Origin: a virus
Taxonomy: Duplodnaviria; Heunggongvirae; Uroviricota; Caudoviricetes
Direction: 5' to 3' (one strand)
Length of the DNA stretch: 46,405 bases
IMG/VR virus record: IMGVR_UViG_2687453454_000004
Shown: piece by piece, positions 32,461 to 33,161 of the stretch
Layout of the letters: each line of letters starts with the position of its first letter
Numbering within the stretch: position 1 is the stretch's first letter
Translations under genes and position numbers: made by a program
Notes under the pieces: model-generated
What the model was told of the DNA's origin: nothing
Database searches by the model: none
Seen by the model: the letters and a program-made list of their open reading frames with translations, nothing else

Positions 32461-32484
32461 AAAAAACCCGCTCAGTGGCGGGTT
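32461..32484 (-). terminator. Intrinsic terminator, copy 1 of a duplicated hairpin
   Basis: aacccgc-tcagtg-gcgggtt with U-run on the minus strand; about 28-bp identical copy at 33137-33161. Confidence 0.6.
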
Positions 32485-32561
32485 GCTATCACAGCTATAT
32501 ATTTACTTATTATGCCGTTACTAACATTTATCTTCGACATATAATCGAAAACAAGGTTTAC

Positions 32562-32987
32562 TTAAAACTCTGCTTTCATTTTATCCGGGAATTTTTTATT
32601 TGCAGCATAATAACTACCAAGTACATAAGCGTTCATTTGCTGCTCTACATCAACCCGACATGCCGCACTAGAACAAGCTCCACTGATAAGCCCAAAAGAA
32701 CTCCCTTTAGCAGAGAGATCAGCTTTGATTTCCTCTACAGTGTTTTTCCCCATAGCAACTACACACCCTGTCACAATATATCTAGCCTTCACATCATCCA
32801 TGCTAAGGATAGTAGTTTTCGCAATTTTGCTGTATCCATCATTTTTATAAACATCCATGGCAAACGCACGGCAATCTGTATAATACGGACTTGCTTTAAC
32901 TTGCGAATACTCAGGTAATTTCATACCTGCACAACCAACTAAACAAAAACCTATCGCTGCTATTAATACCTTTTTCATTACAGTCAT
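32562..32987 (-). CDS. Predicted lipoprotein moron in the Q-S interval
   Basis: 141 aa; signal peptide with lipobox (LIAAIGFCLVGCAG); AT-rich; flanked by two identical terminator hairpins. Confidence 0.7.
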   Translation of the reverse strand: MTVMKKVLIAAIGFCLVGCAGMKLPEYSQVKASPYYTDCRAFAMDVYKNDGYSKIAKTTILSMDDVKARYIVTGCVVAMGKNTVEEIKADLSAKGSSFGLISGACSSAACRVDVEQQMNAYVLGSYYAANKKFPDKMKAEF

Positions 32988-33136
32988 AACCTAGAAGCAT
33001 CATTGAAACTAATTTATTAAATAATCATCGAGTTTCTGGAATACAGACGTTAACCATCTCTCCAAAATCTAAAAGATAATAAGAAAAAATGTTTAACGCA
33101 CCAATCCATTTCATAGTTTCATGAGACATCTGGCAC

Positions 33137-33161
33137 AAAAAAACCCGCTCAGTGGCGGGTT
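33137..33161 (-). terminator. Intrinsic terminator, copy 2 (tR'-like, downstream of PR')
   Basis: Identical hairpin to 32461-32484; about 45 nt downstream of the candidate late promoter. Confidence 0.6.

Follow-up and report, generated by a model that had tools for sequence, protein, structure and literature searches.

Organization of the locus

The late region of a lambda-like Escherichia coli prophage, contained in the 46,405-nucleotide (nt) Caudoviricetes record IMGVR_UViG_2687453454_000004 of IMG/VR (the window, to the whole of which all coordinates refer), carries a gene for a predicted lipoprotein of 141 amino acids (aa) that is bracketed by two copies of one terminator hairpin. All late-region genes discussed here are on the minus strand, in the order DUF968 gene, Q, short intergenic region, first hairpin, AT-rich segment of 149 nt, 141-aa open reading frame (ORF), second hairpin, orf47-like gene, methyltransferase gene, third terminator, holin gene, lysozyme gene and Rz/Rz1. 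The genome of E. coli 5CRE51 is 100% identical here and has the same filled arrangement. The features from Q to the second hairpin are:

33268..34020, minus strand: late antiterminator Q (PF03589, E 4e-53; 753-nt coding sequence annotated in RefSeq as antitermination protein)
33193..33236, minus strand: late promoter PR', from the alignment with lambda PR'
33236-33231, minus strand: PR' -35 element, TTGCAT, followed by a 17-nt spacer
33213-33208, minus strand: PR' -10 element, TAAGAT, in register with TAAATT of lambda
33201-33193, minus strand: sigma70 pause element, AACGAT-GGG
33137..33161, minus strand: proximal hairpin, assigned as tR' (exact repeat; 7-bp stem with five G-C pairs, 6-nt loop, T7 tail)
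32988..33136, minus strand: AT-rich 5' region of the cassette (149 nt), with the candidate promoter
33104-33099 (TTGGTG), 17-nt spacer, 33081-33076 (TATTAT), minus strand: candidate own promoter of the cassette, from a position weight matrix (PWM) scan
32562..32987, minus strand: predicted lipoprotein gene, 141 aa (ORF and lipobox; phrog_4748, E 7.5e-91)
32461..32484, minus strand: distal hairpin (exact repeat; T6 tail; found by terminator scan)

The original prediction, made by reading this DNA, described an AT-rich gene for a 141-aa lipoprotein between Q/PR' and the lysis genes, flanked on both sides by an identical hairpin of about 28 bp. The ORF, the conserved lipobox, the position and a GC content of 35.8% for the cassette (versus 49.2% for the window and 47-55% for the neighbouring genes) all confirm the description of the gene. 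With respect to the hairpins, two exact copies do lie at the two ends, but the exact repeat comprises 24 nt and not about 28.

A repeat finder detected this 24-nt direct repeat in the window with its copies 677 nt apart. On the plus strand it reads AAAAAACCCGCTCAGTGGCGGGTT (32461-32484 and 33138-33161) and, as a minus-strand terminator, AACCCGCCACTGAGCGGGTTTTTT (33161-33138 and 32484-32461). Each minus-strand copy consists of AACCCGC-CACTGA-GCGGGTT followed by six or seven T and is a canonical intrinsic terminator; in the form with a free loop, AACCCGC-N6-GCGGGTTTTTT, the loop of both window copies is CACTGA. The proximal copy has one additional A at 33137, and outside the two copies the sequences diverge at once on either side. 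No further copy with up to three mismatches is present in the window, and none is expected (0 in 100 shuffles). The homologue of the proximal terminator site is annotated as a terminator in the phages Ayreon and SfV, and an Rfam scan gave only sub-threshold leader-peptide matches that are produced by the terminator. The distal hairpin is both the cassette's own terminator and its junction to the downstream module.

Filled and empty sites

An empty site with a single hairpin, as anticipated in the original prediction for related phages, is found in vB_EcoM-720R4, the flanks of which are 99% identical to those of the window, and in SfV. Both have Q-PR', one hairpin and orf47, and lack the lipoprotein gene; to the left of their hairpin lies the distal flank of the window and to the right its proximal flank. 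The filled site, with two hairpins and the gene, is present in Ayreon, in which both terminators are annotated, in mEp460, in 15 Stx2c phages and in E. coli 5CRE51. Relatives that all carry the gene with a single terminator, a pattern that the prediction had named as speaking against itself, were not encountered: every gene-bearing locus in which both ends are readable has two hairpins. The proximal and distal loops differ by 1 nt in many filled loci, so that the two hairpins need not be exactly identical.

Among 5426 complete E. coli genomes, 214 (~4%) have the cassette, in all cases in the chromosome, and up to 257 have an empty-type junction, a few of which hold other cargo. Such cargo is seen in KD602 (L004:2630-3300) and N32 (L013), in which the slot between tR' and orf47 is occupied by the gene for an unrelated 176-aa hypothetical protein (WP_000966854.1; no match in Pfam or PADLOC) that is followed by a different terminator of its own; the tR' in front of this gene is a variant. 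Cargo has thus landed at this site recurrently. The orf47-like gene opens the module 3' of the hairpin in empty and filled sites alike. The segment with the lipoprotein gene has the marks by which morons are recognized, i.e. it is extra DNA, deviates in GC content and has a downstream terminator of its own, and we consider it likely that it is a moron in the form of a self-contained accessory cassette (653 nt plus one 24-nt terminator copy) located in the late-operon leader directly 3' of tR'.

The original prediction saw in the hairpin pair the trace of an insertion. Presence and absence of the cassette between matching flanks support this notion, but the direction, insertion or deletion, is not settled. 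Alternatively, the filled state could be the older one and the single-hairpin sites could have arisen by deletion between the 24-nt repeats, through recombination or replication slippage and without recent insertion, a scenario that we regard as quite possible while leaning against it. A deletion predicts the junction of 720R4 exactly (flank 5' of the proximal copy, one hairpin, flank 3' of the distal copy), and the hairpin-gene-hairpin arrangement is old, being common to a Salmonella prophage with a diverged distal loop and saturated synonymous divergence. In SfV, however, the T tract is followed by ~12 nt (GTGCCTTGATGT) that match the beginning of the cassette's 5' flank and not the distal flank, as would befit an undisturbed target rather than a scar; moreover, the 36% GC of the cassette is foreign to the phage, and the slot holds unrelated cargo in other strains. 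These junction sequences faintly hint that SfV may represent the untouched target and 720R4 a deletion product. Probably, insertion and deletion both occur, and the two readings are compatible.

The cassette is found in each of the 15 Stx2c records of the phage collection, with 99.5-99.6% identity and in the order Q, hairpin, lipoprotein gene, hairpin, orf47, methylase, tRNA-Met, tRNA-Arg, stx2cA and stx2cB (e.g. PV98-693, L005, about 3221-7963). The original prediction had equated the position of the gene with the slot of the Shiga toxin genes. This holds insofar as both lie in the same PR'-to-S leader, but in the Stx2c phages the cassette is 5' of orf47, the methylase gene, two tRNA genes and stx2c, which makes it a neighbour of stx outside the stx slot proper.

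In one E. coli sequence (NZ_OZ501612.1), an IS1 element lies inside the cassette. mEp460_4F5, considered as a laboratory recombinant at the hairpin, was uninformative, as its Q region differs.

The cassette is located behind a lambda-type late control unit

Q is homologous to lambda Q (phmmer E 1e-37 against lambda Q in PDB 7UBM/7UBN), and the gene is followed by a promoter, a pause element and an intrinsic terminator as in the late control unit of lambda. Counted from its ATG, Q has 250 aa, compared with 207 aa in lambda; a 264-aa ORF reaches back to a GTG at 34062. The protein matches lambda Q at both ends and has an inserted DnaJ-type CXXCXGXG zinc-finger segment (PF00684, under the Pfam cut-off). 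The 107 nt from Q to the hairpin align with lambda PR', and CAACGATGGG is invariant. In lambda PR', this block holds the sigma70-dependent pause element.

From this alignment, the PR' start site would be near 33201; the hairpin begins ~40 nt 3' of this position. In a lysogen, the leader RNA from PR' to tR' would then be ~62-65 nt long and form a shortened counterpart of the lambda 6S RNA. The proximal hairpin is the tR' of a lambda-type Q/PR' unit, and the terminators in this unit are expected to be read through in a Q-dependent manner. For Stx phages, a PNAS 2020 paper on StxS (PMC7547250) describes PR' as constitutively active, with its transcription ending at tR' in the lysogenic state. Because the lipoprotein gene is on the late strand 3' of a lambda-like PR'/tR', Q-dependent read-through is, in line with the original prediction, the expected route of its expression in lytic growth. 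In addition, the terminator after the gene and the homologues outside late operons argue for an autonomous transcription unit.

The -10 hexamer of PR' with its context (GATAAGATTT) recurs ~30 nt into the leader, at 33167-33172 (minus strand) just 5' of the tR' stem, the copy in PR' being at 33208-33213 (minus strand). The repeated element may be a second sigma70-pause element or a plain duplication.

The lipoprotein and its expression signals

The ORF begins MTVMKKVLIAAIGFCLVG|CAG, the bar marking the predicted cleavage site before Cys. Its N-terminus consists of a basic segment (MKK), a hydrophobic segment (VLIAAIGFC) and the lipobox LVGC, which fits the pattern [LVI][ASTVI][GAS]C; initiation at an alternative ATG at 32978 would give 138 aa. 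Across eight homologues, the lipobox residues Gly18 and Cys19 are invariant, as are four more Cys. The residue at +2 is Ala (Ser in Buttiauxella), and under the +2 rule a residue other than Asp predicts Lol-dependent sorting to the outer membrane. The protein is thus predicted to be lipidated at Cys19 by the signal-peptidase-II route and to be sorted to the outer membrane. The predicted mature protein of ~122 aa is helical with four conserved Cys, and a fairly confident AlphaFold model (pLDDT 79) shows a five-helix bundle, pointing to an all-helical bundle with two probable disulfides. The gene is under purifying selection (dN/dS 0.08-0.22, with the synonymous divergence, dS, saturated).

Searches for function did not connect the protein to a characterized family. 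Pfam (E <= 0.01), NCBIfam and PADLOC gave no match, including to Bor/Iss-type envelope lipoprotein and defence models; the only PHROG, phrog_4748, has no function assigned; no credible match emerged when PDB sequences were searched with a profile; and the structure neighbours of the AlphaFold model in PDB and BFVD were uninformative. A word-indexed search of 5.8 billion proteins returned nine clusters and an exhaustive hidden Markov model search of 1.84 billion representatives returned eight relatives, all of them unannotated. Primases of Pseudomonas phages matched in tblastn (28% identity, E about 1e-3 to 1e-2), but we consider these matches spurious. A literature search via mEp460, WP_000217632 (RefSeq), former locus tags and the number of the PHROG yielded neither a description of the gene nor transcript data.

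A strict sigma70 consensus scan of the 5' region of the cassette returned no promoter. In the Salmonella cassette, an element at the same position as the candidate promoter, TTGGTA-18-TATCAT, is the top PWM match, and the 5' regions from E. coli and Salmonella are 60% identical, compared with 52 +/- 2% for shuffled sequences. A 37-codon ORF that is annotated in Ayreon between tR' and the lipoprotein gene was rejected as a gene, as it is not conserved: ~5 codons of it are left in Salmonella.

Homologues in other settings

The gene is also found outside the leader of lambda-type late operons, and there, too, in Salmonella, in Serratia and on plasmids, it is AT-rich relative to its flanks. In a Salmonella prophage (L006), a homologue with 76% identity lies 3' of a Q that belongs to another family (DUF1133). 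Its proximal stem-loop is the same (CCCGCCACTGAGCGGG-T7), and the distal copy has diverged and has another loop (AACCCGCATTGCGCGGG-T5). Synonymous sites are saturated between the E. coli and Salmonella genes (dS about 1.7), and the identity of the hairpin despite this saturation indicates that the hairpin has not simply co-diverged with its cargo. Homologues in prophage early regions of Salmonella (L007, L009) lie beside VapBC; a terminator-like hairpin is located 3' of the gene in L006, L007 and L009.

Homologues are also carried by 204 non-mobilizable plasmids, 194 from Klebsiella and the others from Cronobacter, Citrobacter and Buttiauxella. Their size (about 100-120 kb among the matches listed), their typing as non-mobilizable and the presence of phage replication genes lead us to regard them as SSU5-like phage-plasmids. 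In three Serratia species, homologues with 55-62% identity form single-gene islets between housekeeping genes and outside any prophage (L137:3004-3441, L138:3004-3432 and L136:3001-3417; 42-45% GC versus 55-60% in the flanks). The neighbours are emrAB and SpoU methylase/trxC at two of these loci and a proline iminopeptidase-like hydrolase gene and holE/ftnA at the third. A gene that is kept alone in such varied settings must bring its own expression signals and act independently of lysis.

In the Klebsiella phage ST13-OXA48phi12.3 (L141:3040-3730) and in a Buttiauxella plasmid (L008:5001-5745), a 99-aa annotated lipoprotein gene starts 10 nt after the homologue, which suggests a two-gene unit in these phage-plasmid-like records.

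The hairpin as a seam between modules

In searches of phage and E. coli sequences, many matches end exactly at a hairpin edge (query 1-385, or 1030-1040 onward). Among 40 evenly sampled E. coli matches, about a quarter end and about a quarter start at hairpin edges. O157:H7 FRIK944 (L012:2300-2600) has kept the distal hairpin even though its downstream module differs, with homology stopping right after the T tract. The exact 24-mer is present in at least 120 viral contigs of IMG/VR (L016-L135), in 47 flank combinations among the matches listed; the contexts, again among the matches listed, include tail and baseplate regions (e.g. L074, L088, L035). The hairpin is thus a mosaic junction common to many phage modules as a pattern, and recombination at the hairpin would be the mechanism.

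Alternatively, the two hairpins could be independent copies of a very common terminator that have no part in cassette movement, the breakpoints then reflecting selection to keep a terminator. Many intrinsic terminators have CCCGC/GCGGG stems, the contigs with the 24-mer vary widely in GC content and gene context, and one loop base differs between the copies in many filled loci. This explanation nevertheless seems unlikely to us, given that the two window copies are identical over 24 nt including the loop CACTGA and the T tract, with 0 chance matches expected in the window, that the stem-loop is the same in E. coli and Salmonella despite saturation at the synonymous sites of the gene next to it, and that so many of the sampled matches break at the hairpin edges.

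If the seam is taken further, the 24-nt terminator could be a portable recombination linker for single-gene cassettes across late operons and tail regions of unrelated temperate phages, with a cargo that would be an envelope lysogenic-conversion or superinfection-exclusion factor common to lambdoid prophages, plasmids resembling SSU5-type phage-plasmids and Serratia chromosomes and would be co-induced with Stx2c in O157. We put this forward as a speculation and regard it as rather doubtful.

In FRIK944, tRNA-Met and a gene with DUF6645 come directly after the cassette, and the annotation of the displayed stretch lists no stx gene. In contig L085, two copies of the 24-mer that are 1428 nt apart bracket a gene for a 338-aa structural protein and a gene for a 118-aa protein with the lipobox LTSC, a putative lipoprotein.

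A model for the moron in the late-operon leader

Combining the junctions, the control elements and the predicted product, we suggest the following model for the lipoprotein moron: (i) in the lysogen, PR' would fire constitutively and polymerase would stop at the proximal hairpin (tR'), giving the short leader RNA, and the lipoprotein would be expressed from transcripts that start at the candidate promoter TTGGTG-17-TATTAT or leak past tR'; (ii) the distal hairpin would end transcription of the cassette ahead of orf47, the methylase gene and, past the third terminator, the holin, lysozyme and spanin genes; (iii) upon induction, Q would modify polymerase at PR' such that all three terminators are read through and the lipoprotein is made with the lysis genes and, in Stx2c phages, together with stx2c; (iv) the protein would be a signal-peptidase-II substrate that resides in the outer membrane and has its mature part, a helical domain of ~120 aa with disulfides, in the periplasm; and (v) crossover at the hairpin would add, remove or re-partner the cassette. 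As a guess, we favour for the protein a role at the cell envelope that benefits the lysogen or the phage, e.g. a superinfection block or envelope protection.

Several points weigh against this model. Expression of the lipoprotein, in the lysogen or after induction, is inferred, and lipidation and sorting are derived from sequence rules. The candidate promoter is a moderate PWM match, the second-best in the window, with three of six positions in the -35 element. The junctions alone do not separate insertion from deletion, as a deletion between the 24-nt repeats yields an empty site as easily. Finally, 13 of the contigs with the 24-mer among the matches listed have a GC content of 0.57-0.65, and some of these contexts may reflect chance recurrence of a common stem and not shared ancestry.

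Morons of lambdoid phages such as HK97 gene 15 and lambda bor and lom were defined by Juhala and Hendrix (reviewed in PMC3594210). The cassette shares with them that it is extra DNA relative to collinear relatives, differs in GC content from its neighbours, consists of a single gene with its own intrinsic terminator and has a predicted envelope product. It differs from them in that it lies in the PR'-to-S leader and not in the tail or post-lysis regions, in that the terminator 3' of the gene repeats the phage tR' exactly and its own promoter is inferred, and in that the lipoprotein is unrelated to Bor, Lom and gp15 (no Pfam match). The cassette is an uncharacterised example of a known moron type, and none of this alters current concepts.

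Like the cargo between Q and S in Stx phages (stxAB, tRNAs and the StxS leader RNA; PMC7547250), the cassette is 3' of a constitutive PR'/tR', so that it would be Q-induced, and a short leader RNA is predicted; it also co-resides with stx2c in the 15 Stx2c records. Unlike this cargo, it directly follows tR', 5' of orf47, the methylase gene and the tRNA genes and not in the stx position. Its leader of about 62-65 nt is unrelated to the 258-nt StxS precursor, and its Q belongs to the lambda-Q family. Compared with the PR'-6S RNA-tR' unit of lambda, it has in common a homologous Q, a homologous PR' with CAACGATGGG and an intrinsic terminator after the promoter, whereas the leader is ~130 nt shorter than the 194-nt 6S RNA, the hairpin sequence is another and Q has the zinc-finger segment.

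Cor and T5 Llp block the FhuA receptor, and lambda Bor gives serum resistance. The lipoprotein resembles these proteins in being a small predicted outer-membrane lipoprotein that is non-essential and encoded on temperate elements, but has no sequence similarity to them and is predicted to form an all-helical bundle with two probable disulfides.

The moron represents a tidy case of how an accessory gene would be safely wired into a late operon. One terminator would keep the constitutive PR' out of the cargo, an identical second terminator would keep transcription of the cargo out of the lysis genes, and the same short sequence would serve as the seam for module exchange. This well-conserved lipoprotein gene is present in ~4% of the complete E. 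coli genomes, in about 200 plasmids of Klebsiella, Cronobacter and Citrobacter and in all 15 Stx2c records. Its product may have a new envelope or phage-exclusion function.

The downstream genes and the lysis cassette

Between the lipoprotein gene and the holin gene lie the orf47-like gene and the DNA methylase gene. The features downstream of the distal hairpin are:

32135..32338, minus strand: small gene like SfV orf47 (phrog_331)
30932..31984, minus strand: orphan N6/N4 DNA methyltransferase in the late-operon leader (PF01555, E 2e-42; PADLOC MTase_II model)
30909..30925, minus strand: third intrinsic terminator, after the methylase gene and directly 5' of the holin gene (terminator scan)
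29688..30864, minus strand: complete lysis cassette (Pfam; RefSeq names essD and rrrD)
30649-30864, minus strand: P21-type holin (Pfam)
30152-30649, minus strand: lysozyme (Pfam)
29688-30167, minus strand: Rz (Pfam)
29750-29935, minus strand: Rz1, embedded in Rz (lipobox VVGC and proline-rich tail)

The position of the lipoprotein gene, 3' of PR' and 5' of the holin gene on the late strand, together with the finding that a consensus scan shows no strong sigma70 promoter in its 5' region, would also fit a late lysis-associated function, e.g. spanin-like, antiholin-like or in lysis timing, in which case the gene would be expressed by Q read-through only and would not cause lysogenic conversion. 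We consider such a function very unlikely. The holin, lysozyme, Rz and embedded Rz1 genes form a complete set without the lipoprotein; 720R4 and SfV, which were deposited as complete phage genomes, are without the gene; and homologues occur in prophage early regions, on plasmids and in Serratia chromosomes far from lysis genes. Moreover, the protein has neither a C-terminal membrane segment nor an Rz1-type proline-rich region, and a terminator right after the gene would be useless if only terminator-resistant polymerase transcribed it. A spanin identity was rejected specifically, as Rz/Rz1 are encoded elsewhere and the 141-aa protein has no C-terminal hydrophobic segment.

As for the moron, an intrinsic terminator also closes the next part of the leader: Ayreon and SfV have a terminator annotation at the site equivalent to the third terminator, and the location of this terminator between the methylase and holin genes implies that the orf47-methylase pair is likewise an insulated segment of the late-operon leader.

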